A stretch of DNA of 64,000 nucleotides, from positions 32,001-96,000 of IMG/VR virus record IMGVR_UViG_3300037851_000500; one strand, 5' to 3'. Below, in pieces: positions 4,271 through 55,742 of the stretch. The translations under genes and the position numbers were made by a program. Below the pieces are notes generated by a model. That model made no database searches and had not been told where the DNA came from. It saw only the letters and a program-made list of their open reading frames with translations. The DNA comes from a virus. Every line of letters begins with the position of its first letter. The stretch's first letter is position 1.

Positions 4271-4762
4271 CTAGGTTTCATCATACGCAAATGTAGCCGT
4301 TTCAGGAGTTAATTGCCCAGGAGAAGCAGTATTCTGAACAATCATTTGCATACGCAGAAAATCACCCTTGTACCCTGTTCCGGTATGGGGTCCAGTATTA
4401 ACTGCATCCAGGTCAATAACAGCCCCGGAAGTTTTACTAAAAAAGTCAGTTCCAGAAAGATCAGTATCCACATTTGCTGCCCAAGTACCAGTTACAGTGT
4501 ATTCAACACCAATACCAGTACCAAACCCGCTGCTTCCATCAGAATAGGCCCTCAGATTTTGAATATCAACAGATGGGGCCACACTAATATAAAACCGAAG
4601 CATTTTTGTATAACTATAATCTTCACCAGCACCAGGAATTTGTAAACGATTGTTGGTGTCAACAGCCGTTTCATCTACCGATTTAAATCTGACAGTCCCA
4701 GAAGTTTTGTCCACACCTGTACTTGTACCTGTCATTTCGTGAATTTGTACTGTAGCTGCCAT
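4271..4762 (-). CDS. Small beta-rich virion protein, candidate high-copy filament subunit
   Basis: G/T/S-rich beta-sandwich-like sequence with a strong AAGGAG RBS and a downstream hairpin; directly follows the repeat protein. Confidence 0.6.
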   Translation of the reverse strand: MAATVQIHEMTGTSTGVDKTSGTVRFKSVDETAVDTNNRLQIPGAGEDYSYTKMLRFYISVAPSVDIQNLRAYSDGSSGFGTGIGVEYTVTGTWAANVDTDLSGTDFFSKTSGAVIDLDAVNTGPHTGTGYKGDFLRMQMIVQNTASPGQLTPETATFAYDET

Positions 4763-4806: not shown

Positions 4807-7800
4807 TCATGTAGTTGTAAAATTAAACTTTTTATTTGTCACAACAAATTGGGGTTTCTCATATGTTTTAAAATCAAATTTCTTATTGGTGACAATAAAT
4901 GAATATTTTGGATGTGCTGAAATTAAAGTGGAATAAATAATCACATCCATTAAAGTAGTTTTTGCTACATCACCAGAAAGAATTAATGCGTCCACCCCAA
5001 TCTGTCTGTAGATAGTTTCATAAAAAATACTATCAAGAGTAATTTCATTTAAAGTATAATTATACAACCACCCATCAAATCCAATAAGTTTTTGTTGAGA
5101 AATCTTCGTAAGGAGGGCATCCAGCACAACCCACGGAACAGGAGAACCAATAAGAATAGCGTCAAGTTGTTGGTTGATTACAAAAAGACTTTGTAATTGC
5201 GCTTCCAACAATGTTGTATTCATTATACCATGCTTTACCACCATAGCGTCAAGGGAAAAATTACCAATTATTGTTTTTAATAAAACAGAATCAAAAGTTA
5301 CCTGTCTTAAATTAATAATAGATAAAACTGCATCCAGGGATAAAGAAAAAGAATTTATAGTATATAAAATAGAATCTAAAGATATTTCTTTAAACATTAT
5401 TTTATCCAATAAAGCACCCAAACTAATGTTTAAAACACCTTCAGGTAAATATAAAATAGCATCTAATGATGTATATTTAGATAATAACTGCATTAAAAAA
5501 GCATCAACCGATATAGTTTTAGATTGTATTAATTTTAATAATGCATCTAAAGAAATACCTAAAATATTACCAATAGAATTTAAAAGAGAATCCAAATTTA
5601 ATGATTGTAAAATTAATTTATTAATATTAGCATCTAATTGTGTAATAACTACATTATTTATTCTTGAAATAAAAGAATCAATATCAACAGAACTATAATT
5701 TAAAAACTGAAGAAGACCATCCATTCCTACAGATTTTAAAAGGATATTAAAAATAACAGCATCTATTCCAACATAAGAAAATTCAGAAATACTTAAAATA
5801 GAATCTAAAGAAGCCTGTAATAAATTTAACTTTTGGGTATAAGCATCAATAGAAATATTTTCAAACCCCAAAGAAACCAAAAGAGCATCAACAGATAAAT
5901 TTATAGGAATGTCAATAATAGAAAGGAAAGCATCAATAGATGCTAATCTTGTTAATCCTAAAGCATTTAATAAAGAATCAAAAGAAAAAAGAATATCATT
6001 ACCGCTACCCAAAATAGCATCTAAATAACTTAAATTTGTAGCTCCTATTTTATTTAATAAAGAATCAATAGAAATTTGTTCCATACCTATCTTTTTTAAA
6101 TAAGCATCTAAACTTGGTTCAATAGCACCTATTTTGTACAAAAAAGCATTTAAAGACAGCGTTTTAAACATATTAGAATTTTGAATAAATCCATCTATTG
6201 ATACAACCTTAACAAATTCTTTAAAAACAATAGAATCAAATGATACTTCTTTAGAAAGCAACTTATAAAGAAAAGCATCTATATTTGCGCTTCTTAATTG
6301 ATCTATTTTATTCAACAAAGAATCAATAGTAACCTGTAAATCTATAGATTCGTAAACAATAGAATCCAAATTTGAAATAATATTTATATCCTGCTTATTC
6401 AATAAAGCATCAACTAATGGTGATACTATAAATAATTTTTTAATAAAAGCATCAATAGATGATGATTTAGTTAATCCAGTTTTATTTAATAATGAGTCAA
6501 TGCTTATATCTTCAGTTAAATTTAATTTATTTAATAAACTATCAATGTTTATATCTTTTGTTTCTAATAACTGAATAAAAGCATCAATAGATGATGATTT
6601 AGTTAATCCAGTTTTATTTAATAATGAGTCAATGCTTATATTTTTAGATTCTAATAACTGAATAAAAGCATCAATAGATGATGATTTAGTTAATCCAGTT
6701 TTATTTAATAAAGAATCAATAGATATTAATTTTGTAAATCCAATCTTATTCAATAAAGAATCAAAGCTCATGGAAATAAAGTTTTGTAAATAAACCAAGG
6801 CATCAATGGGAATTTCTTTTGTTGATCCTATTTTATTCAATAAACTATCAATGCTTATATTTTTAGATTCTAATAATTGAATAAAAGCGTCAATAGAAGA
6901 TGATTGTGTAAGTCCTACTTTATTTAATAATGAATCAATTGTTGAAGAAACAGTTGATACTAATAATAACCAAGCATCAAATTCACTTGTTTTTATAATA
7001 CCTGATTTATTTAACAAGGAGTCAATATTTACTGCTCTTTCTGTTAAATAAATTAATATAGCATCTAAACTTGAATCTATTGTAAATCCAATTTTATTTA
7101 ATAAAGAATCTATTTCTACAGAAGAAATATTTAATTTTCGTAATAAAGAATTCAGGGAAACATTTTTCAATAAACCAACATTTGTTAAAAATGAATCCAA
7201 TGATGCCGTTTTTGTTAATCCCATTTTATTTAATAGTGAATCAATAGTAACTGATCTTTCTATTCCCAATTTATTTAATAAAGAATCTAAATTTTGAACT
7301 TTAGTTATATTATCTTTGTTCAATAAAGAATCTAAATTGATAGATTTAAAAACTAAAGATAAAAGAAAAGAATCTAATTGTGTATTTTTAAACTGTTCTT
7401 TTAACAAAAGTGAATCCAATGAAGATTGAACAGATTCTATTGCATAAATAAAAGAATCTAATTGTGCTGATTTAGTTGTTTCCTTTAATAATAAAGCGTC
7501 TGATTGTACTTGTTTTAAAACCGCTAAAACTTTATAGGCATCTAATGATGTTATTTTAGTAATATCTACTTTATTTAATAATGAATCCAGTTGACTCTGT
7601 AATAAATTTATTTTTTGAAGTAAAGAATCAATATCAACAGATGAAATTAACCCTAACTTATTAACTAATGAATCAATATTTACATTTTTTAAAGTAGCTA
7701 ATTTTTGTACTAAAGAATCAATAGACAAAGAATTATAAATTCCTATTTTATTTAATAAAGAATCAATCGGAACATTTAAATATTTAGAAATTTGCAAAAA

Positions 7801-8535
7801 ACTATCAATAGATATACTTGCAGAAAGGGTTTTCTGAACATATGCATCATAATTAAAACCTTGGGTTAATGCTTTTTGAACAAGAGAATCTAAACTGACT
7901 GTTTTAGTCAGCCCGACTTTATTAATAAGTGCATCAACCGATAATGTTTTTGTTAACCCGGTTTTATTTAATAAAGAATCTATTGATGCTGTTTTAGTAA
8001 GATCTGCTTTGTTTAACAGAGAATCAATAGATGATGTTTTAGTTAGCCCAGTTTTATTAAGAAAAGCATCCAGTGATGCTGTTTCATCAAGACCTATTTT
8101 ATTTAATAAAGAATCAATTAATGCTGTTTTTGTTAGTCCAGATTTATTTAATAAAGAATCAATAGATGCTGTTCTATTAAGACCAACAATATTGAGATAA
8201 GCATCTAATGAAACATTTTCGTCATATGTCGTAATAGAATTCCGTAAAACAACATCCTGAATGAATAGTGCAATTTGTGAATCAAGAGATAAAGTCTTTG
8301 AATCTATTTTTTGTAGATAAGAATCTAAATCTGAAGTTTTAGTTTGATTTAATTTATTTAAAAGAGAATCTAAATCTAAAGTTTTTGAATCTATTTTTTG
8401 TAAATAAGCATCTAAATCCGAATCTATTGTAACAGAAAAATTTTCAACATCATTTGCATCTTCAAGAAGATAATAATCTCCATTCTCTAATAAGAGACTT
8501 CCACTTAAATCTTCTTTATAGATATAATTAGCCAT
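4807..8535 (-). CDS. 1242-aa tandem-repeat virion protein, about 80 repeats of 14-15 aa, consensus S-[IL]-D-[SA]-[LF]-L-x-K
   Basis: The repeat runs from about residue 35 to 1205. N-terminal LLLENGDYYLLE motif; C-terminal F[IV]VTNKKFxF present twice. Confidence 0.85.
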   Translation of the reverse strand: MANYIYKEDLSGSLLLENGDYYLLEDANDVENFSVTIDSDLDAYLQKIDSKTLDLDSLLNKLNQTKTSDLDSYLQKIDSKTLSLDSQIALFIQDVVLRNSITTYDENVSLDAYLNIVGLNRTASIDSLLNKSGLTKTALIDSLLNKIGLDETASLDAFLNKTGLTKTSSIDSLLNKADLTKTASIDSLLNKTGLTKTLSVDALINKVGLTKTVSLDSLVQKALTQGFNYDAYVQKTLSASISIDSFLQISKYLNVPIDSLLNKIGIYNSLSIDSLVQKLATLKNVNIDSLVNKLGLISSVDIDSLLQKINLLQSQLDSLLNKVDITKITSLDAYKVLAVLKQVQSDALLLKETTKSAQLDSFIYAIESVQSSLDSLLLKEQFKNTQLDSFLLSLVFKSINLDSLLNKDNITKVQNLDSLLNKLGIERSVTIDSLLNKMGLTKTASLDSFLTNVGLLKNVSLNSLLRKLNISSVEIDSLLNKIGFTIDSSLDAILIYLTERAVNIDSLLNKSGIIKTSEFDAWLLLVSTVSSTIDSLLNKVGLTQSSSIDAFIQLLESKNISIDSLLNKIGSTKEIPIDALVYLQNFISMSFDSLLNKIGFTKLISIDSLLNKTGLTKSSSIDAFIQLLESKNISIDSLLNKTGLTKSSSIDAFIQLLETKDINIDSLLNKLNLTEDISIDSLLNKTGLTKSSSIDAFIKKLFIVSPLVDALLNKQDINIISNLDSIVYESIDLQVTIDSLLNKIDQLRSANIDAFLYKLLSKEVSFDSIVFKEFVKVVSIDGFIQNSNMFKTLSLNAFLYKIGAIEPSLDAYLKKIGMEQISIDSLLNKIGATNLSYLDAILGSGNDILFSFDSLLNALGLTRLASIDAFLSIIDIPINLSVDALLVSLGFENISIDAYTQKLNLLQASLDSILSISEFSYVGIDAVIFNILLKSVGMDGLLQFLNYSSVDIDSFISRINNVVITQLDANINKLILQSLNLDSLLNSIGNILGISLDALLKLIQSKTISVDAFLMQLLSKYTSLDAILYLPEGVLNISLGALLDKIMFKEISLDSILYTINSFSLSLDAVLSIINLRQVTFDSVLLKTIIGNFSLDAMVVKHGIMNTTLLEAQLQSLFVINQQLDAILIGSPVPWVVLDALLTKISQQKLIGFDGWLYNYTLNEITLDSIFYETIYRQIGVDALILSGDVAKTTLMDVIIYSTLISAHPKYSFIVTNKKFDFKTYEKPQFVVTNKKFNFTTT
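6442..6711. repeat. Recent DNA-level duplications inside the repeat gene
   Basis: AATAAAAGCATCAATAGATGATGATTTAGTTAATCCAGTTTTATTTAATAA recurs at 6442, 6574 and 6661. Offsets are 132 and 87 bp, i.e. whole numbers of 14/15-aa units. Confidence 0.85.
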
Positions 8536-22500: not shown

Positions 22501-24094
22501 TTTGAGCATAATCAAGATGCATATATGCCCCTGTAACTGGATTTCTACCCATTTCCTGATCAATATCAACATAAGTTTGTGTTTGAGCTACTATTCTTCT
22601 TGGAACTCCCTTACCACCAAAACTTAAATTACTTATAGATTCCCAAATATATTTATTCACCCACCAACCATCAGGATACCCGGAAAGATCTAAATAAATT
22701 CTTGTTCCTGGTGCTACAGTATCTTGGGTGCATCTTAAATTATCTTGTAAAGGAAAAGCATCTTGTACTAACTGACCAAATACTAATATTTTACCACTTC
22801 TTGTTACTTCCATTGATTTTGCTACAAAGGCACAATTCCCAGAATCAAAATGATTTAACCCATAAATAGGTTCATCCAATTTTAAAGATACTGGGTTTAA
22901 AGTATCTTCTCTATCAATATAAAATAAACTATATTTTAAAGAATATTGAGCGTGGTGCTTACTTTCTGGGTCAGTATCCAACCAATGGTTTTCTCCTGAT
23001 ACTATTTTTCCATGAAAAAAATATATTCTGTTATCCCACTCATCTGTACGAGATAAACTCATATCATTATTCCAACCAGCAGTTATATCATAAATATTCA
23101 TTGGATAGGTAACATTATTAACTGTAGTTGGATAATTAGCAATTACAGTTTCACCATAAAAAGGATGAATTCTTGAAAATCTAAATTGATTTACAAGATT
23201 AATAAAACCTGATTGAAAAGTATACCAATAATCATGTAAACCATCTCTGGAACTATGTCTTTGTACGGAAGATATAAAACTTGGTTGCGGTTTAAATGAT
23301 TCACCAGCATAAATAGAAAAACAAGATGTTACTTCTCCAGTTATGTCTGGAAATTGGGTTAGTCTTATAGCATCTCTAAAATTAAATTCATCAGCATTAT
23401 ATGTATCATCAATTCCAAGGTCCTCGACTATGGAAAAATCCCCAAACCACCCATCATAACTAAACCAGTTGTACCATTTATAAGGAACATCTGGATCTGG
23501 TTCTCTTAAAAGATAAGAAGTTGAATCCGTATAACCTGCATCTTTCCTAATCCATATTGGGTGAACACCAGCACCAATATTATAGTCTTCTAACATTCCC
23601 TCCATTTTAATAGCGTCACTTAACCACAACCCCCAAAACCAAATGTCTTTAGTATTAAAAAACAATCTATCAATATTATGTCTAAGACCAGCACCATAAT
23701 AAGGACCAATTTTTTGAGCAAAAGCAATAGCAAATTTAGAATTTGTAGGTCTGTAATATGAACCAAAATAAGAAGATCCCTGACTATATACTCCCTGTGC
23801 TCTTAATTCAGCAGAATCATACAAACTCAATTGCCCAAACCAAACAATTGAACCGGGGCAAATATCAGAACCAATTAAATATGGAACAGCATCCAATTTA
23901 GTAGATAAGTTAATATCCCTTGTTTCATTATTATATGGTTTATGATTTTTACCACCAATAATACCAAATATCCAAGCCCCCAACATTGAGCCAATCCAAC
24001 CACCCACCATAGAACCAATTGGCCCCCAGTAAGAACCAATTATGGAACCGAGTGTTCCACCAGCAGAACTACCTGTAGAAACATCCACTGACAT
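19553..24094 (-). CDS. Tail tip/central fibre protein (gpJ-like), long paralogue
   Basis: C-terminal part shares DNIKEGxF, PNxxRxExxxR, GVKRxxQAxRxAQ and VSHxxTGW with 24101-26398; large aromatic-rich insertion. Confidence 0.75.
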   Translation of the reverse strand: MSVDVSTGSSAGGTLGSIIGSYWGPIGSMVGGWIGSMLGAWIFGIIGGKNHKPYNNETRDINLSTKLDAVPYLIGSDICPGSIVWFGQLSLYDSAELRAQGVYSQGSSYFGSYYRPTNSKFAIAFAQKIGPYYGAGLRHNIDRLFFNTKDIWFWGLWLSDAIKMEGMLEDYNIGAGVHPIWIRKDAGYTDSTSYLLREPDPDVPYKWYNWFSYDGWFGDFSIVEDLGIDDTYNADEFNFRDAIRLTQFPDITGEVTSCFSIYAGESFKPQPSFISSVQRHSSRDGLHDYWYTFQSGFINLVNQFRFSRIHPFYGETVIANYPTTVNNVTYPMNIYDITAGWNNDMSLSRTDEWDNRIYFFHGKIVSGENHWLDTDPESKHHAQYSLKYSLFYIDREDTLNPVSLKLDEPIYGLNHFDSGNCAFVAKSMEVTRSGKILVFGQLVQDAFPLQDNLRCTQDTVAPGTRIYLDLSGYPDGWWVNKYIWESISNLSFGGKGVPRRIVAQTQTYVDIDQEMGRNPVTGAYMHLDYAQRYEQEFITVDYGSTTTHLITNYKPSLISTNRDGKFDAVVIIGYNYNVAFTIDQSESFVGGNITLTDPLPVAPVPGQNYYLVFEGSPSVAYDQDVVNPELPYDAYTDEVNDGDPWRYSDISSIGGPNICAVLQFDKETGEFEGILNKTLAPYFYSLWGLQYCCSFSDLIATCATEEEIWVYYACMQIPTCGKICQYAIDSDTLSFDHFSSGGNDTWDERGLWESNPNGCGHAWGINYHATAWLWVTNPNTGELIKQWYALRYDYPNYQIRFGRLRDNRFSSGLIKILVRETVYTGPLYNGWWFTGETFNEDMSIGKVGIENKLFIYLNHAYDGGYYSFGGYGEFWVLNAPTTLNPNGVLRCVAQSGAAWTCGYATIDWNLTSSFTTLLSGYYQGSAYSYHRDENPISALDILFKNDVFGDYFQQGSIPLIDVTSVTPATSTCNEPVTVTAVIGNNYINFLEPRYQYSLCMDARESVMDIARDIMNSCMGWIFQCGKKVRYVVPTSTETPVFSFGKESSGHLFTVQGNIPTYPQSTAYVAYNWTGKDTHFMILTLDLSAYPINYFKGESGLFTFNLITYEVIVTEHMSTTQLKIIGDSTFNLLCEDAYWHGLNISGSSFYINPKDNIKEGTFVFSQKSRLKRPNLVRVEYKDRLQEYVNEIAESQSDYLRLSDEYDKIQTYKMRGVKRSSQANRLAQQLMDYNEFVEWSCAFEADVSGLYLCPGEIITVSHEITGWNGKYFRIMSLEEVGDSFEVRLECEEYNPYVYHDQGSNLLISNSFNGFPGITNDMTPVSQFSNLNIFESREFPYLYFGFNSDVVQSNIIGGRVYRFNGTTWDVVGNIAPMPITMVLVNSLTDSIFDNSYIEYSDLSGVLPTSGLIFIGEELISYNGIDADNNRLMNIVRQQRDTYAAAHASGSLITFYEPTIFVDIASTWLGSQTFRVVPLIYSSSPMFNFNSAVSFTINIQLYGYRPYFPESLRLVEE

Positions 24095-26849: not shown

Positions 26850-27377
26850 TTAAAAATTTGTAATACGTTCAAATTTAAAACCTTTATGATGTCTGCGATT
26901 CCCAGAAACGCAAGAATAACAATGGGAATAATTTAAATTATGATCTTTTGCAAATTGATTTAAATTTTTTCTAAATATAACCCCACCAATTGGAGTTGTA
27001 ATTTTAAACCAACTAAATTCTTTTTGTTTATTTTTCCACTGATCCCTCATAGGTATAAAAATACAATTATCAAAGCAATAATTTCCATTTACATTTATAC
27101 GTTCTATAGAAAGATCCTCAGTTCTGTATTGCCACTTTTTAGCATACAAAAATTTAAAATACATATCTGCTTTAAAACCAACAAAATCATTCCATCTTGA
27201 GTCAATTGTAATACCCCTACCACCATAATTTTTCCATTTAGGTGAATTTGGGTTAGTACACCTATTTTTCATTGATTTCCAAATCCTATAAAATTTAGTC
27301 CCATGTTCCCCATGCTTAAAATTTCTTTCAGAAAGATCTGGTCTAATATTGCCGGTATTTCCATGTTTCCTTTTCAT
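26850..27377 (-). CDS. HNH homing endonuclease
   Basis: YRIWKSMKNRC..NYGGRGI..SIERINVNGNYCFDNC and a C-terminal HHKGFKF DNA-binding module. Confidence 0.9.
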   Translation of the reverse strand: MKRKHGNTGNIRPDLSERNFKHGEHGTKFYRIWKSMKNRCTNPNSPKWKNYGGRGITIDSRWNDFVGFKADMYFKFLYAKKWQYRTEDLSIERINVNGNYCFDNCIFIPMRDQWKNKQKEFSWFKITTPIGGVIFRKNLNQFAKDHNLNYSHCYSCVSGNRRHHKGFKFERITNF

Positions 27378-28680: not shown

Positions 28681-31600
28681 TTAATAATTTCTCATAGCAT
28701 CTCTAATTCTACGATTACTACGAATCATTCTAACAATATTTCCTTCTAATACAGCAGTATTCTTCATCAAAAAGTCAACACCAGATTGAGTATCAATAGC
28801 ACTTAAATTAATAGGCATATGAACTGTAAACTTATTTCCGCTATCACTTGTTTTAATCATCTTAGATAATTTATCTACTGGGGACACTATTTCATTTTGA
28901 CCATAAGGAGTTTTTTCACCAAAAGTATATGCTTGTCCAGATTTTAATCCTCTACCAATAATTGGTTCTGAAATAGTTCCACCCTCTGCCATAGCAATAT
29001 AACGCTCAGAACCAGAAGCAGCAGCCATACCAGAACCACCGGAGGCCATACCAGAACCACCGGAGGCCATACCAGAACCACCGGAGGCCATTCCGCTTTC
29101 ACCGCCACTAAATAAACCACCAATCATATCAAAAATACTACCAAGCATACCTCCGCTTTTACCAGCAGCTTGAGCATATTGTCCAGACGCAAGTAATGTA
29201 GCAATTTCTCCCAATTTAGAAAGAAATGAAGAAGTACCAGCATTTACCGCTTCTTTAGTTGCATTTACTGCATCCGTAGTTTTCTGAGCCTGATCAACTG
29301 CCCCCTGAGTAGCTTCTTTTACTGCTTGTTGCACACCTTCTGGTTTACCAACTATAAAAACACCAATTGGTCTGGTGCCTTCTAAAACCTGCTTCATTAA
29401 AACTTGATTCTGTTGCTGCAATGCTTCCATAGCTTTATTCATAGATGTAGCGGCAGGAGTCCCACCTTTACCAAATGCTTTTTGTAAAAATGTGGGAGAT
29501 CCAGGCTCACCAGATCCAAGAAAATCCATTAAAGGTTCCGTTATAGTTTTCTTAATGGTTGCTCTAAGAACATCCCTTTGGACAGTATTCATTAAATCTG
29601 TAAGTGCTTCTTTAGCTGTTTTAGTTTGGTCAACAAAATCTGCCATAGCATCTGTCATGCTATCTGCCCATGATTTGGACATATCTATCATTTCAGCCCA
29701 AAGAGGATGCAACTCTCTCCAAACAAGTCTTTCAGTTTCCAGGCGCATTATTTCAAGCTGGTCTACATAATTCTTTTTCATTTGTTCAAAAAATGGTCTA
29801 GAATCATCTTTTATATTTTCTAATTGTGTTTCAATTTCTTTAATTTTAAGAATTATATCAACGGTGTCTTTATTAAATTGTGCCGTAGCAGAATTTAATC
29901 TAGCCTGTCTTTGAATTAATGGTGAATATGCCCCCTCCCAGTATTTCATTGTTCTTATAACCAAATCAGCTTGATCACTATAATTTTTTTGCATTAAATT
30001 TAGTGTAGTTAACTCCATGCGTGTTTTCCGCATAGCTGCTACCATTAAATTCCACTTTTCTGCTACTTTATTAGTATGATCATCCAATTCTTCAAATTGA
30101 GATAACATTTTATCAATATCATTATAAAGTTTTTGAGCGTCCAATTCAATTTCAGCAAATGGAGATTTAAACGCTGCCCCCATTATTTTTTCTTTTAAAT
30201 CTTTTTGTGCATCGGTATACTCTTTTTGTATTTTAATTACTCTATTATAAATACCCTCTGTATAAGCAATTTCAGCATCAGAATTATCATAAAAACCACC
30301 CCTCCTTTTACTATTTTCAATCTGTAATCTTTTGATAGTTTCTTCCGTTAGTAAAATCCATTTTTGCAGCTTTTGCCATTCATTAGTTGGTGCATCATAA
30401 GTGTTTATAAGAAAATCATTCCATTCTTTTTTCAATCGGGATATACGATTTTCTTCTCTTAAAGAGTAATCATTACTTTTTTTGTCCCGTTCCGCATTAT
30501 ATGCAAAAATTAAAGAATTAGTATGATCCAGAGCATCTTTAAATGTATTATATTGATGTTCATATCGTGCATATTGACTTTCATCGTATGCTGTTTCACC
30601 AGCTTTTACACTAGCAAAGTATTTTTCATACGCTGCCAACTGCTCTTGTAACTGTTTTTTCTTTAATTGCGCTTCTTCTGTTTGGAGTCTATGTTCTTCT
30701 GCAAATTTTGCATAACCTTCCAAAGAAGCTGTTTTTGCTTGTTGTAACTGTTTTTTAGTTGAAAGTGCATACTCCAACAAAGCAATGCTATCATGTGGCA
30801 ATTTAAACATCGGCCCAAGATCTACTTGTTTTCTACCAGCTTCAGAAAGTTTTTCAGTTATTCCGTTAATTATATCTTGAATAGATTTTAATCGTTCTTC
30901 AGCAGATTTACTACCATCCCTAAAATTTTGCATAGCTTTAGCTAATTTTTTATCCAACTTATCTGCTTCTTTATTAGTAGCAGAAATATCATCTGTAAAA
31001 CCATGCATAATATCTACTGCATTAGCTGCATTAGTATCATATTTATCAACCCAAGCAGACATAACATCTAAAGATGCGGCTACAAAAGCAGTTATATTTT
31101 CAATAGCTACAAAAACACGCATAATAGCATATGAAAGATTCAAAATACCTTTTAATGAGGTGCTCATATTCTCAAGTTGTAAATTACTACCACCAAATAA
31201 ATCAGAAAAACCACCAATTATATTACCAATATTAGATAATGTATTAAATAAAGATTCAGCAACAATACCAATAGTTGATATTGTGGCACCAAATCCAGCA
31301 GCAATTTCTTTACCAAAATTTGTTAATTCCCCCTTAACATTAATTAACTTATCAGTAAAATCCATTAATTTTTTAGAAAATATGTTTGTAAATTCCTCTG
31401 CACCCACCCGTTTAATAATTTTCCAAACTTCAGTTATTCTATTTTTAGCATGTAACCATGAACCTTCTAATTTTTTATTCATTTCATCAAATGGCATAAG
31501 AGCATCAGACAAAACCACCAGTAAGTCCTTACCTTCTTTTTTTGCGTCTTCTAATACTTTCTTTAAATTAACCCCCATAAATTTAAACATCATAGCCAAC

Positions 31601-34215
31601 TGATCAGAAGCCCGCTGTCTGCCCAAAATAACAGCATTTAATTCTTGTCGCATTTGAGTACCGGCATTAGCCATACCCTCAGTTACAGCCCTAACTGCTG
31701 TTCCAATAGCAGCTATTTTTCTAACATCCTCTTTAGTCTCAGGTACAATTCCTGCTTGAACAAAAGTTTTTGTCAGCATCGTAAGATCTTCAAGAGAAAG
31801 CACAGTTTCAGTAGCTACCAACTGCAATCTATCCATCAACCCACGACTATAATCATAAGCGTGTTGAAAATTATCCTTTACGTTCCCAAACATACGCATT
31901 GAAAGAACGGTAGCTAAAGACATAGCATCTTTTTGAAATTGCCCGATTTCATCCATTGTTTTTGTAAAAAATCCAGCAACCCTACCAATAATATTCTGCA
32001 AGATGTAATAAACAGCAGCATATTGCCATCTAAAATTACGAATCATATCCATTGATGATTTTAAAAATGATTTTGACATAGTATTATTTATTGCCTGCAT
32101 GGATCTAGATGCTTGGCTGTTTATTCTATTAAATTCAGAATGAGCATAACTAAATTGTTTTTTCATTTCTTCTAATTTAGCAATGTCCTTCCCAACTGCT
32201 TCTGAATTTATAAGCCCAGATTTTTGAATAGCTTTGAGTTTTACAATCTGAGCTTCAATATTTTTCATCTCAGTAATATATGCCTTTGCCCCCATTTTTA
32301 AATCACTATATAATTTTTCTGCTTGCTTAGTATACAAATCTTTAAATAAATGTGTATTACCTATTTTTTCTTGATATTTTTGTAACTGTATTAAATCGTT
32401 TTTAAGTTTTTCTATTCCTTTATTTAACCAATCTTCAGGATTCATGCTCTTTCTAATATCATCCACTACTTGTTGTGCCTGAGTCGCTAATTTAGAACGA
32501 TCTATTTTAATATCTTTAACAGTAATAGTATATGATTCCATTAATCCACGTAAACCTTTAGCCCTTTTTTCTAAAAATAAAGCTAATTTATTATAATCAG
32601 ATTTTATTCTTTCATTAGCTACTTCTTCAGCAAGAACTCTGGATATAGCTGCATTTCTTTCAATTTCTTCTATTTGTTTAGTTAATTGGACTCTTTTCTG
32701 AGCATAAGAAGTATGTAATGTTCCTAATTTATTAATAATTGAATTAATTAATAAAAAATTATTTTCAGAAACAGAACCCAAAGAAGCCATTTTATCTTTA
32801 GCTTCTTTAATACTATTAACAATATTTCTAAATGCAGAAGTATCGGGTTTCTCTACTATTTTAGAAATATTTAATTTAGAAAAATCCCTCTGCATTTCCT
32901 TAAAAGTTGTTTGATACTGCTTTATAGAATTTAAACTTTCTGCTATTTTTAAACGCATAGTATCTACAGCAGCAGTATCAATTCCAGGTTTACCTCTAAT
33001 AACCTTTAAAGTAGAATCCCAATTTTTAAGACTTGTGATTATTTCACCAATTTGATTTTGATAAGATCTCCCATGCTGAATTAATTTTTGATATGTTTCC
33101 GTATCCCCCCGCCTAATACTATTAATTTGTTCAGCAAAATTTTTAAAAGACCCCTGAAAAACATTTTCTAATTTACCACCAATTGGGGAAATAGCTTCTT
33201 TTAAAGATTTTTGAGTAGATTGTCCTAAAGATTTAGCATCTACTGATGCTTTATAAAGAATATCCTTTAAAACCATTGCCTGCTTTCCAGTAGCTTCAAA
33301 AGCAGTCATTACTCTAACTTGTTCATTTTTAATATTTTCTAAATATTTTTTAGCTACTTCAATATCCTCTTTACGAACACGCATAAGAGATTCTTCAGCA
33401 GTTTTTCTCAAACTTGCTAAATCATCCAATCGTGCCCTTTGTTCCTTTTGAGCAGAAACAACATTTTTATATTCGGCACCAGTAGATTTCAAAAAATCCG
33501 ATTGCCTTAAAATCTTTCCTGAATCTGAAGACAACCCCAAAGTATTTTTTAATTGGGTATATTGCTTAGAAACATCAGCAACAGTTCTTGTAACACTGGT
33601 AAGAACACTATTAGCTGTATTAGCTATAGTAGATGAAACTTTTGAATGGACTTTAGTTGCTTCTAAATAAAGTGGTTCAAATGCATTACTTTTAATTTCA
33701 CCAATAAGTCTGCTATAGTCATTTTTTGCTGTTTCTATTTGTTTTGTAGCTTTAGTATCTATTGCTGCAATTATTCCAGGTAATAAATTTTCAGATTTAG
33801 TCCCTGAATATTTAGATATTAACCCCTCTTTTTGAGAAGTAGTTTTAGATTGAATTTGAGAAATCTTACGGGAATAACTATCAAGTAATAAGGAACTTTT
33901 TCGTTCGATATTACTTAATGCTACATCCTGCATTTTAATAAAATCTTGATTTAACTTTTGCAGTTCCCCTAATTCACGGCGGGATGCTCCAATAAGAACA
34001 CGAATTTCCCCAACAGTATTTTTGGTCATATTGCCAAATTCTGATAGGAATTGCTTCTGAAAATTTCCATAAGAACTTGCAGCAGATTTGGAAATATCAG
34101 CTACTTGATCCTTAAATTGGTTCATCTTCCGAATAGTATTTCTTAATTCAGAATCCCAATTAGTTTTAAGATCAAGAACTATTTCTTCTACAATCTTATC
34201 GGAGTCATCTGCCAT
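28681..34215 (-). CDS. Tail tape measure protein
   Basis: 1844 aa, helical/coiled-coil, between the chaperones and Dit, with a C-terminal MAEGG..GE..EIVSP motif. Confidence 0.9.
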   Translation of the reverse strand: MADDSDKIVEEIVLDLKTNWDSELRNTIRKMNQFKDQVADISKSAASSYGNFQKQFLSEFGNMTKNTVGEIRVLIGASRRELGELQKLNQDFIKMQDVALSNIERKSSLLLDSYSRKISQIQSKTTSQKEGLISKYSGTKSENLLPGIIAAIDTKATKQIETAKNDYSRLIGEIKSNAFEPLYLEATKVHSKVSSTIANTANSVLTSVTRTVADVSKQYTQLKNTLGLSSDSGKILRQSDFLKSTGAEYKNVVSAQKEQRARLDDLASLRKTAEESLMRVRKEDIEVAKKYLENIKNEQVRVMTAFEATGKQAMVLKDILYKASVDAKSLGQSTQKSLKEAISPIGGKLENVFQGSFKNFAEQINSIRRGDTETYQKLIQHGRSYQNQIGEIITSLKNWDSTLKVIRGKPGIDTAAVDTMRLKIAESLNSIKQYQTTFKEMQRDFSKLNISKIVEKPDTSAFRNIVNSIKEAKDKMASLGSVSENNFLLINSIINKLGTLHTSYAQKRVQLTKQIEEIERNAAISRVLAEEVANERIKSDYNKLALFLEKRAKGLRGLMESYTITVKDIKIDRSKLATQAQQVVDDIRKSMNPEDWLNKGIEKLKNDLIQLQKYQEKIGNTHLFKDLYTKQAEKLYSDLKMGAKAYITEMKNIEAQIVKLKAIQKSGLINSEAVGKDIAKLEEMKKQFSYAHSEFNRINSQASRSMQAINNTMSKSFLKSSMDMIRNFRWQYAAVYYILQNIIGRVAGFFTKTMDEIGQFQKDAMSLATVLSMRMFGNVKDNFQHAYDYSRGLMDRLQLVATETVLSLEDLTMLTKTFVQAGIVPETKEDVRKIAAIGTAVRAVTEGMANAGTQMRQELNAVILGRQRASDQLAMMFKFMGVNLKKVLEDAKKEGKDLLVVLSDALMPFDEMNKKLEGSWLHAKNRITEVWKIIKRVGAEEFTNIFSKKLMDFTDKLINVKGELTNFGKEIAAGFGATISTIGIVAESLFNTLSNIGNIIGGFSDLFGGSNLQLENMSTSLKGILNLSYAIMRVFVAIENITAFVAASLDVMSAWVDKYDTNAANAVDIMHGFTDDISATNKEADKLDKKLAKAMQNFRDGSKSAEERLKSIQDIINGITEKLSEAGRKQVDLGPMFKLPHDSIALLEYALSTKKQLQQAKTASLEGYAKFAEEHRLQTEEAQLKKKQLQEQLAAYEKYFASVKAGETAYDESQYARYEHQYNTFKDALDHTNSLIFAYNAERDKKSNDYSLREENRISRLKKEWNDFLINTYDAPTNEWQKLQKWILLTEETIKRLQIENSKRRGGFYDNSDAEIAYTEGIYNRVIKIQKEYTDAQKDLKEKIMGAAFKSPFAEIELDAQKLYNDIDKMLSQFEELDDHTNKVAEKWNLMVAAMRKTRMELTTLNLMQKNYSDQADLVIRTMKYWEGAYSPLIQRQARLNSATAQFNKDTVDIILKIKEIETQLENIKDDSRPFFEQMKKNYVDQLEIMRLETERLVWRELHPLWAEMIDMSKSWADSMTDAMADFVDQTKTAKEALTDLMNTVQRDVLRATIKKTITEPLMDFLGSGEPGSPTFLQKAFGKGGTPAATSMNKAMEALQQQNQVLMKQVLEGTRPIGVFIVGKPEGVQQAVKEATQGAVDQAQKTTDAVNATKEAVNAGTSSFLSKLGEIATLLASGQYAQAAGKSGGMLGSIFDMIGGLFSGGESGMASGGSGMASGGSGMASGGSGMAAASGSERYIAMAEGGTISEPIIGRGLKSGQAYTFGEKTPYGQNEIVSPVDKLSKMIKTSDSGNKFTVHMPINLSAIDTQSGVDFLMKNTAVLEGNIVRMIRSNRRIRDAMRNY
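29024..29091. repeat. 21-bp tandem repeat x3 encoding GGSGMAS in the TMP C-terminus
   Basis: GCCATACCAGAACCACCGGAG repeated three times exactly. Confidence 0.9.
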
Positions 34216-35062: not shown

Positions 35063-35740
35063 TTAATCTTTACAAATTTGAAATTTCCATCCTTTATGAT
35101 GGTTTGCTTTACCATCTAAACACTCATACACATGATTTGGGTTTAATCCATATTTTTTAGAAAATTCATTTACATTTTTTGTAGTAAATTCTTCCCCTTT
35201 TGGAGAAACAGCAATAAATGAGCGTATAGCCCTTGAATTTTTCATTTGATCCTCAAATCTAACAAAAGTACAATTTTCAAAATTATAATTTCCATTAACA
35301 TCAATTCTTTCAATACTTGGACTTTTAATTTTCAATTGTTTTTTAGAATAAAGATATTTAAAATACATATCCTTTTTAAATTCTTCAAAATCTTTCCACC
35401 TGGGGTCATACACTATTCCTCTACCACCATAATTTTTATAACATTTATTATTTATATTATCACATCGTGCTTTTAAACTCTGCCACATTTTATAAAACTT
35501 CATTGTACCTTTAGAATAATTAGTATTCCAAAAACCATGTTTTACATTTTTTGTACGTTTTCTACTTTCTGCATTTAAACATCCACAACTTTTTGTATGC
35601 TCTGATTTTAAATGTTGTGTTATTACAATTGATTTATTACCGCATTCACATCTACATAACCACCTTTTATTTCCCATATAAGCTGTAACAATTAATCTTC
35701 CGAATCTTTTACCATATAAATCCTCAAATTTACCCTGCAT
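35063..35740 (-). CDS. HNH homing endonuclease with N-terminal CxCxCG domain
   Basis: WLCRCECGN..TKSCGC, NYGGRGI, SIERIDVNGNY, HHKGWKF. Start set at MQGKF after GGAGG. Paralogue of 26850-27377. Confidence 0.9.
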   Translation of the reverse strand: MQGKFEDLYGKRFGRLIVTAYMGNKRWLCRCECGNKSIVITQHLKSEHTKSCGCLNAESRKRTKNVKHGFWNTNYSKGTMKFYKMWQSLKARCDNINNKCYKNYGGRGIVYDPRWKDFEEFKKDMYFKYLYSKKQLKIKSPSIERIDVNGNYNFENCTFVRFEDQMKNSRAIRSFIAVSPKGEEFTTKNVNEFSKKYGLNPNHVYECLDGKANHHKGWKFQICKD

Positions 35741-35748
35741 AAAACCTC

Positions 35749-35832
35749 CGTTCATTAATTAGTTTGTATTAAGAGTAGGTAAGATTTCTCCTACCTACTC
35801 TATAATATAGCACAAACTAAAATGAACGTCAA
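35749..35832 (-). promoter_or_regulatory. sigma70 promoter embedded in a long hairpin upstream of the HNH gene
   Basis: TTGACG-17 nt-TATATT at 35832-35804. Nested stems CGTTCATT/AATGAACG, TTAGTTTGT/ACAAACTAA and AGAGTAGGTA/TACCTACTCT. Confidence 0.75.
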
Positions 35833-35838: not shown

Positions 35839-36351
35839 TTACGGACTGGAATATCCACCTATGCGAAACAACTGATCGCCTGATACTCTAGAATCATCAA
35901 TAAGAGCAACAAACTTACAAGCATACACCCGCTGATTATCAGTGGTAAAAGAAATCTCAACTGCACCACCAACATTAGGAGCAGCATTATAAAACTGCCA
36001 CACCTCAGAACCATCAGTAGGCTCAAGAACAAGTTCTGCCGTCTGAATAGGTGTCCCAACCGGCTTACCAAAAGTTAAATAGGTTGTTTCATCAACTGCT
36101 GAAGCAAACAAAATTTTAAGATTAGCAAAAGTTGCTTCAGTCATATTAACTGTGACTTCAACAACAAGACCGGCATCAAGAACCCTAACAGCCGTATCTC
36201 CATACTGATCTGATTTCAATTGATAAGTATTTTGAGTAATAGAAACTTGAACACCACCAAAAGTATGCCCAACATGGACACCATTAAAATAAACATAACA
36301 AGGCCCGATACTAATATTATCGGAACTAAAAGAAGTAGGATATACAGTCAT
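35839..36351 (-). CDS. Major tail (tube) protein
   Basis: ISIGP..VGHTFGGVQVSI..DQYG tube-protein pattern and gene position. Confidence 0.85.
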   Translation of the reverse strand: MTVYPTSFSSDNISIGPCYVYFNGVHVGHTFGGVQVSITQNTYQLKSDQYGDTAVRVLDAGLVVEVTVNMTEATFANLKILFASAVDETTYLTFGKPVGTPIQTAELVLEPTDGSEVWQFYNAAPNVGGAVEISFTTDNQRVYACKFVALIDDSRVSGDQLFRIGGYSSP

Positions 36352-36362
36352 AATCAGTCCTC

Positions 36363-36629
36363 CTAAATTGTAGTAATTGTCCTACAAAATCTGCAAGTAA
36401 TGTGTACTTTTTCTTGTTGGCGATAACGTCTATCATGGTATCCAATAACTTGACCACAAATATCTCCAGGATTTTTCCACAATGGACGACCACATCTATT
36501 ACAATATCCTTCCCTTATTACTTCTTTATTATTAATTAAGTTTTCACAAAACTCGCAAGTTTTAATTTTACCCTGGCAAACCACGCGAACCATTGAATAG
36601 TTAAATTTCTTCTTTTCATCAGTTTCCAT
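36363..36629 (-). CDS. Small zinc-ribbon protein
   Basis: CEFC, CNRC and CRFC motifs; start taken at METDEKK. Confidence 0.55.
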   Translation of the reverse strand: METDEKKKFNYSMVRVVCQGKIKTCEFCENLINNKEVIREGYCNRCGRPLWKNPGDICGQVIGYHDRRYRQQEKVHITCRFCRTITTI

Positions 36630-36642
36630 TAGCACCAACTTT

Positions 36643-37140
36643 CTACGCAATTAATATAGCATCTAAAGAAGAAATTTGCTGTCTAACCCCAAGACGAATA
36701 AATACATTTGATAAGCGGAAAGAAAAATTTCTTGTATGAATGGGCTGAGTAGGCGCACCCTCATTCAAACCGTCATTAACTGATAACAAATTAATTGTTT
36801 TAACAGAAACATCATTAGTTTCAATAGATTCTTGATCCAAAAAATTCTGACCAATTAAGATTTCGGTTGCTGTGCCGAGTTTAAATTGGTCTATAGAAAT
36901 TAATCTAAAAAACAATTGCATATCAGGAATTTGAAATGGATATGACCATCTTCCAGGTCTTCCAGTAACAGAAGTTCTATAAATAACTGCCACATCAATA
37001 GAACCAGGAGTAAATACAATATCCCCGGCAGGGGACCAAGCATATATGCGCGGGTCAGCAATTGTTCCACCAGAAACAGATAACCAACTGCTGTTTGCCT
37101 TAAATAAATCAACTATAGCTTTTTCCAGAGATAAAAACAT
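36643..37140 (-). CDS. Tail terminator protein with C-terminal SSLDAILIA extension
   Basis: LEKAIVDLF..PRIY pattern and position just before the tube gene. Confidence 0.7.
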   Translation of the reverse strand: MFLSLEKAIVDLFKANSSWLSVSGGTIADPRIYAWSPAGDIVFTPGSIDVAVIYRTSVTGRPGRWSYPFQIPDMQLFFRLISIDQFKLGTATEILIGQNFLDQESIETNDVSVKTINLLSVNDGLNEGAPTQPIHTRNFSFRLSNVFIRLGVRQQISSLDAILIA

Positions 37141-37854
37141 TTATCTTCTCGCTATAAAAATATTAAAAGTAAATGCCTTTCTTACTCCCTCAGACCTTGT
37201 TCTTCTTTTTATTGCTCTATGTAACCTTTCTTTTATAAAATCTTTAATAGCCGGTTGAATCTCTTTTAAATGCTGACTAATCCAAGGTCTTGCTGCCATA
37301 TTCTCAGTACCTTCTTCAAGCCACTGAGAATATCTACCAACAGATGTTGCTTTACCAATTTCATCATTTACAAATATTTTATTTCCCTTAAAAAATACTG
37401 TTTTTAATTCTCTACGATCTACACTCCAACCACCTGTTTTCAAATTTACTTGTCCTAATTTTAAAACACCAGCTTTGGTAATTTGAAACCCAATAGACTC
37501 CATTAAAGCCCCTGTCATTTCAGCAGGGTAAGACGATGGGGCAGATGCAGTATGTTCCCCCACCACCTTGTATCTTCCACCCCCAGGAGTATAAGGTTCC
37601 ACATTTGGATCAAATTCGACTATAATATATGTTTTACCGGACGGTCTTTCACCAGATACTTCTTCTTTTAATATTTCAACTACAAATTGACCAATTTCAT
37701 TTAATATTTCTAAATGAATATCTTCTATTACCGCTAAAATTGGATCTAATGACCGTTTAACAATATGGGCCATTAATTTATCAGTTTTAACAATCTGCTT
37801 TATCTGAACTCTCAATGATTTTACAACTTCTAAAAAATCAGATTCTTCAGGCAT
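37141..37854 (-). CDS. HK97 gp10-like tail completion protein
   Basis: HTASAP..PAEMTGALMESI and YSQWLEEGTENMAARPWI. Confidence 0.8.
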   Translation of the reverse strand: MPEESDFLEVVKSLRVQIKQIVKTDKLMAHIVKRSLDPILAVIEDIHLEILNEIGQFVVEILKEEVSGERPSGKTYIIVEFDPNVEPYTPGGGRYKVVGEHTASAPSSYPAEMTGALMESIGFQITKAGVLKLGQVNLKTGGWSVDRRELKTVFFKGNKIFVNDEIGKATSVGRYSQWLEEGTENMAARPWISQHLKEIQPAIKDFIKERLHRAIKRRTRSEGVRKAFTFNIFIARR

Positions 37855-37855: not shown

Positions 37856-38203
37856 TTATGTTTCCTGAATAGCTAAGTATAATTCTTTATGATGCAGCCC
37901 CTTTGAATCATAAACATCCAATGATGGAGTTACATATAAATAAGTAGAAGTATTTTTTAATTTAATTCTATCCCCATGAACAATATCCTCATTCTTTAAA
38001 AAAAATCCCAAAAATTCATTTCTTGCTGTTTGACCAGTTGGAGTTTGTGATAACGTAGAAGTAAAATTCCCAACTTTATCCAAACGACAAGGAACTTCAG
38101 TAGCTATTTCACTCCAAGATTGGAGCATATGCCCCTGACTATTCAAAGAATTAATTTTTCGTTCAATAGAACATCTTTGAACTAATAAGCCTATATAAGA
38201 CAT
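37856..38203 (-). CDS. Head closure/stopper protein
   Basis: CSIER..W..VPCR..DI..GDRI..HHKEL pattern and position. Confidence 0.75.
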   Translation of the reverse strand: MSYIGLLVQRCSIERKINSLNSQGHMLQSWSEIATEVPCRLDKVGNFTSTLSQTPTGQTARNEFLGFFLKNEDIVHGDRIKLKNTSTYLYVTPSLDVYDSKGLHHKELYLAIQET

Positions 38204-38913
38204 TATCCTATAGACTCCTTACGAAATCTTCCAAGGTTAGCAAAAATATTAGGAGCAAAACCTTTTAATGTATTAATTACTGTTGCAGAATAATTCTCAT
38301 ATTGATAACCACCAATAGTTTCACTTTGTAATAAAGGATTTTGTGGTGAATTAATTATCGTTTTAATAGACTCAAACAATAAATATTGAAGTTCAAACAT
38401 TTCTGGGGAATCAGCCTCATAGCCCCCGTTCCATTTAACTTTAATAGTTTTGTAATACCCAAAATCAAAACCTTGATCATAAATTAATAAGCCCTTATTT
38501 TTATATAAAATATACCCATCTGTAGCCAAATAATCTGTAGACTCAGTAACAGCAACATCTCTTATTAAAAATGAAGTTATAGAATTAACAGGGTAAGTTG
38601 GAAACCAAAAATTGTTAAATTTAGGTGGGTCAAAGATACAATATCCCAAATTATATTCGTAAACTATATTATCCTCATTTGGGTCAAGCTCATCAATCGG
38701 ATCTTCATCTGCAATATCATAGGAATACCACTGTGCTTTTAATCGTCTATTACAAAATTTATCAAAAACAGTAGAAGCAGAGTTAATAGTTCTGGATATA
38801 AAATCATCTCTTACTCCACCATCAGAAGTAAAATTAGGATCTACTTGCTGTTGGTACATCTGATAAAATGTATCTAAATCCATTAAAGCATTATTAGTAA
38901 GAGAAACGGGCAT
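38203..38913 (-). CDS. Head-tail adaptor protein
   Basis: INSAS..FCNR, YPVNSI, IKVKWNGGY, SETIGGYQY. Confidence 0.8.
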   Translation of the reverse strand: MPVSLTNNALMDLDTFYQMYQQQVDPNFTSDGGVRDDFISRTINSASTVFDKFCNRRLKAQWYSYDIADEDPIDELDPNEDNIVYEYNLGYCIFDPPKFNNFWFPTYPVNSITSFLIRDVAVTESTDYLATDGYILYKNKGLLIYDQGFDFGYYKTIKVKWNGGYEADSPEMFELQYLLFESIKTIINSPQNPLLQSETIGGYQYENYSATVINTLKGFAPNIFANLGRFRKESIG

Positions 38914-49674: not shown

Positions 49675-50715
49675 TTGATACCTGTAAAATCGCTCTCAGG
49701 ACGTTTGGTATTAAGAGAAAAGGTTGATTCAAAGTCTATTAACCCTATTGAAGAACACATATATAGAAAGTTAAAGTTAAATAATTACAAGCACAGTGCT
49801 TTGGACAATACAGAACAAAATGAATTTTGTAATATAGTTCAATTTAAAACGTCTATTGATTTAAAAGATATGTTAAAGCCCCTTGGATTAGGAAATGCAT
49901 ATTATCGGTCAAGGATGAAAAGTGCCCCGGTATTATTATCAACTGAAATTTTATTTAGTAAATTTGCGGAATTGTTTGTTAATAATGTAAAAATTAATTT
50001 TTTAGTAACTCAGGAACTATGTAACTATTGGAATAAACTAATAATTGAATTTAAACCAGTTGGAATTTCCAAAATAAACATAAATGAAACATCAAAAACA
50101 TATTTTTTTGCAGCCGTATTATTTACCCATACCATGTATTTTAAAGCCCACTCATTAGCAAATATGAAAAGAGCAATTGATATTATAATAAAATTTGGGG
50201 ATAAACTCCCAGTTTTAACATCTAATAAAAAATCAATATTTCAAATATTTACAACAGTATTAACTGAAAAAAGAATGGATTTATTATTTTCATGTGATAG
50301 TGGATTTGATTTTATAAATAGGTTTTATTATAAAGGATCAAAACATAATAATGTATTTAATGGAAAATTTAAATCATTATTTAAACAATATTTTTCTTCA
50401 AATAATATAAATGGTGAAAAATATTTTAAAAAATATGAAGTGACCCTATCAAAATGGTTTGATTCAATTTCAAAAGAATTTACAAGCCCAAACTCTTTAA
50501 GAAAAACTTGTGAATTAAAATTAATAGGGGCTAATAAAAATTGCAATTCTTTAATAGAAGAATATTTTTCTTTTTTATCCATGCAAAAAACAATGGTGGG
50601 AGCTTTAGATATAGTAAAAGAAACATGGTGGCTGAGTTTTGTTGATTATGTCAGGTATACTTTGGGATATTCAGACTTTTGGAAAATTAAAGCACAAGTT
50701 GACAAAACCAAATAA
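49675..50715 (+). CDS. Hypothetical protein (possibly replication-related)
   Basis: 346 aa, AGGAGG RBS with TTG start. Confidence 0.6.
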   Translation: MIPVKSLSGRLVLREKVDSKSINPIEEHIYRKLKLNNYKHSALDNTEQNEFCNIVQFKTSIDLKDMLKPLGLGNAYYRSRMKSAPVLLSTEILFSKFAELFVNNVKINFLVTQELCNYWNKLIIEFKPVGISKININETSKTYFFAAVLFTHTMYFKAHSLANMKRAIDIIIKFGDKLPVLTSNKKSIFQIFTTVLTEKRMDLLFSCDSGFDFINRFYYKGSKHNNVFNGKFKSLFKQYFSSNNINGEKYFKKYEVTLSKWFDSISKEFTSPNSLRKTCELKLIGANKNCNSLIEEYFSFLSMQKTMVGALDIVKETWWLSFVDYVRYTLGYSDFWKIKAQVDKTK

Positions 50716-50727
50716 AATTAGTACAGT
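50699..50727 (+). promoter_or_regulatory. sigma70 promoter
   Basis: TTGACA-17 nt-TACAGT. Confidence 0.65.
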
Positions 50728-50759
50728 TAAGAAAAAGAAGTAAAAGGGGGCAAATATTT

Positions 50760-51329
50760 ATGGTATTACACTATAGTCAAGAAGATTTTTACAAATTGCC
50801 TGATTGGGAGAAGTTAAGGCTGAAACGGTCCAGGTCCAAATACCGTGGGTATAGAATAATGACCAAAGACCAGGAAGTTTCCCGTAAAGAATCTATTTTT
50901 TCAATTTGTGCTCATTTTGGAATGACCACAATTGAAGAATTAGAGGATGAAGCATTTTCTGTTATGGAAGATCATTGGCCTACTAAAATTGAATATTTTC
51001 TTACACCAAAAATTTTAGATTATTTGTCTATAAGTACAATTTGCAATTTTGGGTATTGCTCCTACTGCATTAATTATGAGGGGTATACAAGAAATAAATT
51101 AAAAACAAATATTATTCCATTTACTGGAATTTGTACAAAAGATGGAGAGGAGGGTATTACCCCACACAATTCCAGATGTTGCAATTGGGAATTGGGGACT
51201 CTCCATGTTCAAATAATGTTTGTAAAAATTGAAAAAATTCTTGAAAATTGTAAATCATATAATATGGATGAATATATTAAAGATTTGGAAAATTTCAACT
51301 TCTGGAATTATTTCTTTTCTATTAATTAA
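50760..51329 (+). CDS. Cys-rich hypothetical protein
   Basis: CSYC..GIC..CCNW. Confidence 0.6.
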   Translation: MVLHYSQEDFYKLPDWEKLRLKRSRSKYRGYRIMTKDQEVSRKESIFSICAHFGMTTIEELEDEAFSVMEDHWPTKIEYFLTPKILDYLSISTICNFGYCSYCINYEGYTRNKLKTNIIPFTGICTKDGEEGITPHNSRCCNWELGTLHVQIMFVKIEKILENCKSYNMDEYIKDLENFNFWNYFFSIN

Positions 51330-51347
51330 ACTGTCTGAGAGGTTATC

Positions 51348-51791: not shown

Positions 51792-51808
51792 CGAAAGGAA
51801 AATTAAAA

Positions 51809-52186: not shown

Positions 52187-52245
52187 CACTTACATGGGCG
52201 GGAAGTCGCCTAAGCGTCTTCGTGGTCCATTTAAGTGTTTTATAT

Positions 52246-52297
52246 AAAATCCCCCTGAAATTAGTAGTGTGAGCGAACTTTTCAGGGGGATTTTTTT
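52246..52297 (+). terminator. Intrinsic terminator
   Basis: AAAATCCCCCTGAAA / TTTCAGGGGGATTTT stem with a T7 tract. Confidence 0.8.
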
Positions 52298-52301
52298 ATA
52301 C

Positions 52302-52330
52302 TTGACTTAACTTGGATCTTTTAGTATATT
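52302..52330 (+). promoter_or_regulatory. sigma70 promoter
   Basis: TTGACT-17 nt-TATATT right after the terminator. Confidence 0.7.
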
Positions 52331-52360
52331 TTTTACAGGGTGGTTAATTTATAATACGGG

Positions 52361-55738: not shown

Positions 55739-55742
55739 ACCA

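Follow-up and report, generated by a model that had tools for sequence, protein, structure and literature searches.

The product of a tail terminator gene, assigned as such by its predicted fold and gene order, ends in a 15-residue extension that matches one unit of the repeat forming a separate, rope-like protein of the same uncultured freshwater phage, and tails of this kind recur in two separate clades of terminator relatives. The gene lies in the window, by which we mean the whole 64,000-nucleotide stretch analysed here (positions 32,001 to 96,000 of IMG/VR record IMGVR_UViG_3300037851_000500). We propose, with about an even chance of being right, that the terminator tail is a portable docking tag that would recruit a reader of the rope repeat, most likely a conserved 163-aa protein (the 'bead'), to the top of the tail. 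The 150-residue terminator core carries a flexible 15-residue extension equivalent to one unit of the rope's 14/15-residue repeat, and under this proposal the exterior of the terminator ring at the tail top would show the same peptide that the rope shows about 80 times. The displayed tail would recruit whichever protein reads it (the 163-aa product of the gene next to the rope is the likeliest), with up to six bead copies, or pairs, around the neck as the outcome. The features concerned are as follows, in window coordinates:

4271..4762, minus strand: conserved 163-aa bead, presumed reader of the repeat (424 clusters)
4807..8535, minus strand: rope protein of 1242 aa, with about 74-80 units of 14/15 aa
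7051..7069: partner of the 19-nt identical stretch, inside rope unit IDSSLDAILIY (rope residue about 490)
28681-34215: tape measure gene, 1844 aa (phrog_167)
35839..36351, minus strand: 170-aa Ig-like protein, candidate major tail protein (phrog_2175)
36643..37140, minus strand: tail terminator gene, putative by sequence and assigned by fold, 165 aa, with the conserved core at residues 1-150
36646..36690, minus strand: 15-residue C-terminal extension (the candidate tag), one rope unit, GVRQQISSLDAILIA, missing from most relatives
36649..36667: 19-nt identical stretch, codons for LDAILI plus 1 nt
37141..37854, minus strand: tail completion or Neck1 gene (phrog_5, E 8.9e-06)
37856..38913, minus strand: two head-tail adaptor or closure genes (phrog_615, phrog_442)

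The preliminary description had called 36643..37140 a putative tail terminator, and both fold and gene order bear this out. The AF2 model built from a 44-sequence alignment has a mean pLDDT of 88, with residues 1-150 forming the fold; a model from an 11-sequence alignment reached a pLDDT of 42 and was discarded. In VIA-align, the model matches the RcGTA terminator (6tba_4A) with Z 14.2 and an rmsd of 2.4 over 128 residues, the pyocin R2 collar with Z 12.4, and the terminators of Mu (Z 12.2), T5 (p142, Z 11.3) and lambda (gpU, Z 10.3), and more than 25 terminator or collar chains reach Z >= 8. The best Foldseek matches are likewise neck and terminator chains, and the structure searches return almost exclusively terminators and collar proteins. 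Searches of Pfam and PHROG with the 165-aa sequence gave no family match, so the assignment rests on fold, and tblastn with terminator and rope queries against 50,697 phage records gave 0 matches. The genes run in the order head-tail adaptor, phrog_615 adaptor, Neck1/tail completion, terminator and a zinc-ribbon ORF, followed downstream by the 170-aa Ig-like candidate tube gene, an HNH endonuclease and the 1844-aa tape measure. PHROG neighbours and the ORF map thus place the terminator downstream of the genes for adaptor, head closure and tail completion and upstream of that for the major tail protein. The interval from the terminator to the tape measure contains no gene of sheath size or with a sheath annotation, and this layout is that of a long non-contractile tail. 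As judged from the model and the gene order, the product is a tail terminator, presumably the hexameric terminator of a siphovirus-type phage. Fold, core size, gene position and a presumed hexameric tube cap are common to it and to the terminators of the lambda gpU, T5 p142, RcGTA and SPP1 gp17 type, and its core fold is also that of Mu gp37, T4 gp15 and the pyocin and PVC caps (PMC11915804).

Beyond this core, the open reading frame continues to the C-terminus GVRQQISSLDAILIA and then a stop. Residues 151-165 (...QQISSLDAILIA) are an addition to the fold, flexible with a pLDDT of about 50, and contain a short four-residue helix at 159-162 in the AF2 model. The preliminary description had likened this end to rope units such as DSSLDAILIY and QQLDAILIG, and both are indeed present in the rope, in IDSSLDAILIY (residue 490) and INQQLDAILIG (residue 1124), among units with the core [S][IL]D[SA][LF][LI]. 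The tail stops five residues past the invariant Asp (SSLDAILIA-COOH), and its SSLDAILI is identical to the corresponding word of IDSSLDAILIY. This is the longest rope word found in another protein of the 112-kb genome and the sole word of at least 8 residues shared there between non-paralogous proteins; chance-shared 6-mers are common (n = 45).

Profiles of the phage's own rope placed the tail at background level. An HMM of its 74 rope units gave the tail 4.5 bits in hmmsearch, no better than junk six-frame ORFs, a result that the preliminary description had said would count against its reading and that, taken literally, does so. With a PSSM from the same rope, no hit in the proteome outscored the tail (13.0 bits), but reversed sequences reached 15.8, 13.5 and 13.1 bits, and both models were rejected as discriminators of the tail. 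Only a PSSM built from 24 ropes of 21 phage genomes (hereafter the 24-rope PSSM; window of 10 residues) separated the tail from background, scoring it at 17.2 bits, rank 7 of 453,113 positions in the 21 genomes, for which the reversed-sequence control gave 2 matches of at least 16 bits. All 7-mers of SSLDAILIA (3/3) occur in other phages' ropes, the own rope being excluded, and in the exact 7-mer run test runs of 3 or more numbered 3 forward versus 1 reversed, a weak enrichment. The match between tail and rope exceeds chance only when its exact placement at the C-terminus and the comparative evidence are taken into account. On sequence evidence, the tail is probably a genuine, selected rope unit, for which its recurrence in relatives, the 24-rope PSSM scores and the shared 7-mers are the strongest evidence.

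Most relatives of the terminator end where its core ends. A search of 1.84 billion representatives placed the family in 38 clusters at 50% identity, mostly of 145-150 residues, and C-terminal tails were compared across 44 members, 34 of which have the core FxR/K motif within 4 residues of the C-terminus. Close relatives (59-81% identical) end in ..NVFIR plus zero to few residues, and the existence of tail-less relatives as close as 73-81% identity indicates that the tail is dispensable. A C-terminal phi-D-A-I-L-phi tail was found in 4/44 terminators: the window terminator (P0001), which ends ..SSLDAILIA; P0002 (80% identical), which ends ..DSSFDAILVETGQKISSFDAILIA / ..KDSSFDAILVETGQKISSFDAILIA and holds two units 14 residues apart, the period of the rope; P0035 (30% identical), which ends ..SLSFDAILID; and P0045 (26% identical), which ends ..VYIDAILY. 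The tail ends at Asp+5 in three of these and at Asp+4 in the remaining one. Beside the score of P0001, the 24-rope PSSM gave 13.6 and 14.6 bits for the two units of P0002 and 16.4 bits for P0035, with other scored members at 8.2 bits or less; the P0045 tail, one residue short of the 10-residue window, went unscored. In a maximum-likelihood tree of the core, the tailed terminators fall into two separate clades, each with support of 100/99 and nested among tail-less members, so at least two gains are needed, and recurrence in two independent clades is an argument that the tail, as a displayed peptide, has a selected function.

The preliminary description had expected the extension to occur only in phages carrying the rope/bead pair. 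The extension is confined to two clades among the 44 relatives, and its co-occurrence with the pair is known from one genome, that of the window, the other tailed terminators being encoded on contigs of 1.1-4.4 kb. Scans of viral contigs with the rope, P0035, P0045 and alignment A4 found nothing, nor did a scan of genome contigs with alignment A4. A metagenome scan with alignment A1 recovered only two contigs, of 30.7 kb (its end lies 3 kb beyond the terminator) and 1.6 kb, both leaving the rope region uncovered, and contigs L001 and L002 are likewise uninformative on that region. Other family members bear other C-terminal additions: a periodic, Ser-rich tail of 37 residues in P0018, P0049 and P0050 (SLSTSPSVSVSISPSISFSISPSVSESISASTSPSE), short acidic tails in P0005 and P0008, and one of a further kind in P0007. 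The C-terminus of the terminator family is a hotspot for extensions.

The claim that the neck displays the rope peptide divides into two parts. The peptide part stands, in that the tail appears to be a genuine rope unit, is an add-on to the core and recurs in two clades; the display part draws on analogy. In myophage terminators the C-terminal arms extend to the sheath; if the same geometry applies here, the terminator C-terminus would be exposed at the ring periphery, and a flexible 15-residue extension emerging there would be free to hold an outside partner. In the terminators of myophages and contractile injection systems, the C-terminal arms reach outward and complete the sheath sheet in a 'handshake' (PMC11915804). 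The window terminator resembles these in extending past its core at the C-terminus, towards an external partner in those systems and, as we infer, here too. However, the arms of those terminators are beta-hairpins that bind sheath, whereas the extension of the window terminator is a rope-repeat unit and no sheath gene lies between terminator and tape measure. Siphophage terminators have been described as having a short C-terminus (in the Mu paper, PMC11915804), unlike the window terminator and its three tailed relatives with their repeat-derived tails. If the proposal is correct, a role of the terminator C-terminus that is known to date from sheath-bearing tails alone would extend to siphophages.

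Docking on a repeated peptide is described in podophage A1002, in which a rope-like extension of the tail ring protein (nozzle-rope gp39) has 11 docking sites, each docking a fibre dimer by beta-augmentation, with the small protein separately encoded (PMC13730344). Chain-like fibres related to those of A1002 occur in podophages GP4 and VP1 (PMC13730344). As in A1002, a ring protein (here the terminator, and also the J-like protein of phage G014 described below) carries rope units as a terminal extension. A1002 has 11 sites, against one unit in the window terminator and two in P0002; the units here are carried by the terminator, at the end of a long non-contractile tail nearest the head, and the main rope has a 1242-aa gene of its own. 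Here we infer that binding occurs at all and that the reader of the tail is the 163-aa protein.

Four other explanations of the tail were considered. The least improbable of them, and still unlikely, is that the Ser/Thr preceding the Asp (ropes have T-T-S-phi-D, the tail S-S-L-D) forms a glycosylation sequon recognized by sugar transferases of the phage itself, with the tail serving as a substrate instead of a docking site. Positions T(-4), T(-3) and S(-2) are conserved in the PSSM, Ser stands at -2 in three of the four terminator tails, P0018 has its 37-residue Ser-rich tail, and glycosyltransferase-like genes, recognized by N-terminal motifs only, lie inside the neck-tail modules of phages G015 and G008. 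However, conservation is just as strong in the hydrophobic D-A-I-L-phi core as at the Ser, a pattern better suited to a binding interface than to a sequon, and P0045 has Tyr at -2. Glycosylation and docking are mutually compatible roles for the tail. By the same N-terminal motifs only, about six glycosyltransferase-like genes occupy G015 50581-56303, between terminator and tube gene, and a similar pair lies at G008 31259-33192.

Next in likelihood, and also improbable, is a generic amphipathic C-terminal helix that makes an ordinary neck contact (with the tube, the tail completion protein or the head closure protein) and resembles the rope by convergence. N-capped amphipathic peptides like the rope motif are common, unrelated proteins contain similar S-phi-D-A-phi-phi peptides, AF2 hints at a short helix at 159-162, and the own-rope models score the tail at background level. 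Yet the 8-residue identity with the phage's own rope is unique in the genome, the spacing of the two copies in P0002, 14 residues, is exactly that of the rope, the end of the tail is held at Asp+5 in three terminators and Asp+4 in the fourth, and tail-less relatives assemble necks without it.

Terminal rope units on other virion proteins, in phages that encode the bead, also bear on the docking-tag proposal; two of these proteins are encoded as follows (in locus coordinates, with those of the genome in brackets):

L117:6855-12077 (G014 66855-72077), minus strand: J-like central tail fibre gene of G014, with 13 C-terminal rope units
L126:17168-17623 (G015 57168-57623), minus strand: unannotated 151-aa gene of G015, between Hc1 (head closure) and Neck1

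The J-like tail-tip protein of G014 (1740 aa) is a homologue, along its length, of the product of window 19553-24094 (E 2e-129); its C-terminal region (residues 1545-1729) adds 13 tandem rope units, and it ends ..DTDLDAILISDVEEDSIMMILNNNML; G014 also encodes a separate 1281-aa rope. The 151-aa protein of G015 begins with the rope unit MATSTASIDGILKT and matches rope 8-mers, including the Thr/Ser linker. In phage G007, a 302-aa virion-module protein has two N-terminal units 15 residues apart, and a 124-aa cassette protein, homologue of window 3513-3830, ends in GLDAVLYE, a tail that the homologues in the window (3513-3830) and G014 do not have. To judge from these sequences, the rope unit may be modular, with 1 to about 80 copies attached at the ends of structural proteins. 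The pattern is supportive and inconclusive, because the PSSM also matches unrelated proteins and the 7-mer test is weakly enriched. In other phages, for example, the 24-rope PSSM hits both an SSB-like acidic tail, SSEIDALLNQLEDDD, and a GT2 motif, ASLDSILNQ. A second set of 9 genomes, whose beads are diverged, was tested for terminal enrichment; the hits were the SSB-like acidic tail, the GT2 motif and unannotated proteins, and for that reason none was counted as a tag. Two further candidates, a 274-aa protein of G014 (..SYFDAVIYTFS) and a 109-aa protein of G008 (NFNIDAILNP), were rejected as tags since the ends of their homologues suggest a conserved part of their own families. In phage G026, a 371-aa replication-module protein (L190:9735-10850 = G026 49735-50850, minus strand) ends ..DDDDDDNKSVNSSEIDALLNQLEDDD, and ..GVDDILEELDEE is the end of a 370-aa protein encoded next to it; both tails are acidic and amphipathic, imitate the rope motif and are false positives for the rope PSSM.

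A broader reading, which we put somewhat short of an even chance, is that rope units are a portable address label that would place the conserved 163-aa protein at chosen sites of the virion, in 1, 2, a dozen or 80 copies, on the terminator, a neck-module protein, the J-like tail tip or a dedicated rope, and that would have been gained independently at least twice in the terminator family. If the tag does recruit the bead, virion decoration would be programmed by a short peptide movable between structural proteins, in widespread freshwater phages. This would be a simple rule for positioning accessory proteins on phage particles and would mean that chain-like fibres, recently described in podophages, also have a counterpart in long-tailed phages and at the neck. 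The 15-residue peptide and the 163-residue protein are a small pair that could serve to attach cargo to phage particles.

The rope and bead are found together well beyond the window. Rope homologues (n = 48) have the same 14/15-aa phi-D-[ASG]-phi-phi repeat, and the window rope, with its 74-80 or so units, presents tandem short candidate docking repeats on an extended peptide. The bead falls into 424 clusters (63-80% identity for the 120 of them that were listed), and a bead query of the ESM Atlas returned unnamed viral clusters only and no structure. It was found on 80 IMG/VR contigs, of which 29 of the longer records were fetched whole. In the first 20 viral records examined, with GC of 31-62%, a motif-rich rope gene adjoins the bead or sits within a few kb of it, so that a separately encoded small protein is linked to a rope gene in all 20.

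These records bear on a third alternative, which we regard as doubtful: the tail would join the rope assembly, for example by sharing a bead oligomer with the rope end, and the fibre would hang from the neck like whiskers, an anchorage that the preliminary description had also raised. The tail peptide is the same as the rope units, six tails would be present at the neck, and the doubled tag of P0002 would hold more firmly. However, a terminator of this family was found in 0/29 bead-carrying viral records, with the window's own genome as the positive control, which weakens neck anchorage as a general rule and implies that the rope/bead pair travels among unrelated phages. Terminal rope tags among the 29 were seen only in G007 (with its near-copy G006) and G015, and since most bead/rope records have no tagged neck protein, the rope would normally be held another way. 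Close relatives of the terminator do without the tail, and the rope's own distinct N- and C-terminal modules could serve as anchors. Rope C-termini share short tandem K-P-x-F-[IV] motifs (KKFDFKTYEKPQFVVTNKKFNFTTT in the window, EKAQFITVSEKPQFIYEIQG and APTDRFIVISETDRFIVIPNSDR; the homologues compared were P0070, P0073, P0087, P0085 and others), and it may be through this motif that the rope is actually anchored or capped. Rope N-terminal domains vary, some of them with signal peptides.

At the DNA level, the 19-nt identity between 36649-36667 and 7051-7069 given in the preliminary description was confirmed: the 19-mer AATTAATATAGCATCTAAA occurs exactly twice in the window, where 0.04 occurrences are expected from shuffled sequence. 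The chance of identical codons for LDAILI is about 0.007-0.02 under the genome's own codon usage. Outside the 19 nt, terminator and rope DNA in register are identical at 25/48 positions, so there is no long DNA homology between tail and rope. Window positions 36300-36732 recur with zero differences in a second freshwater metagenome from another study, and the tail is therefore not an assembly artefact. Least likely of the alternatives is a functionless relic, a stray piece of the rope gene recombined onto the terminator 3' end, which would fit the shared codons of the 19-nt identity and the dispensability of the tail in relatives but not the lack of DNA similarity past 19 nt, the retention of the motif in P0002 at 80% identity, its second origin in a clade about 30% identical, or the identical sequence in the second metagenome.

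No meaningful overlapping ORF lies on the plus strand over the terminator tail. The gene after the terminator most likely starts at an ATG 14 nt beyond the terminator stop, as read from the sequence; its longest ORF starts at a TTG and overlaps the terminator end by 8 nt. This ORF (36363-36650, minus strand), between terminator and candidate tube gene, encodes a 95-aa Cys-rich, zinc-ribbon-like protein with weak, below-threshold matches to DZR_2 and DUF6011. Three HNH endonuclease genes are scattered in the tail module (35063-35755, 26850-27377 and 16972-17496, minus strand), and two of the three share the word KNYGGRGI.
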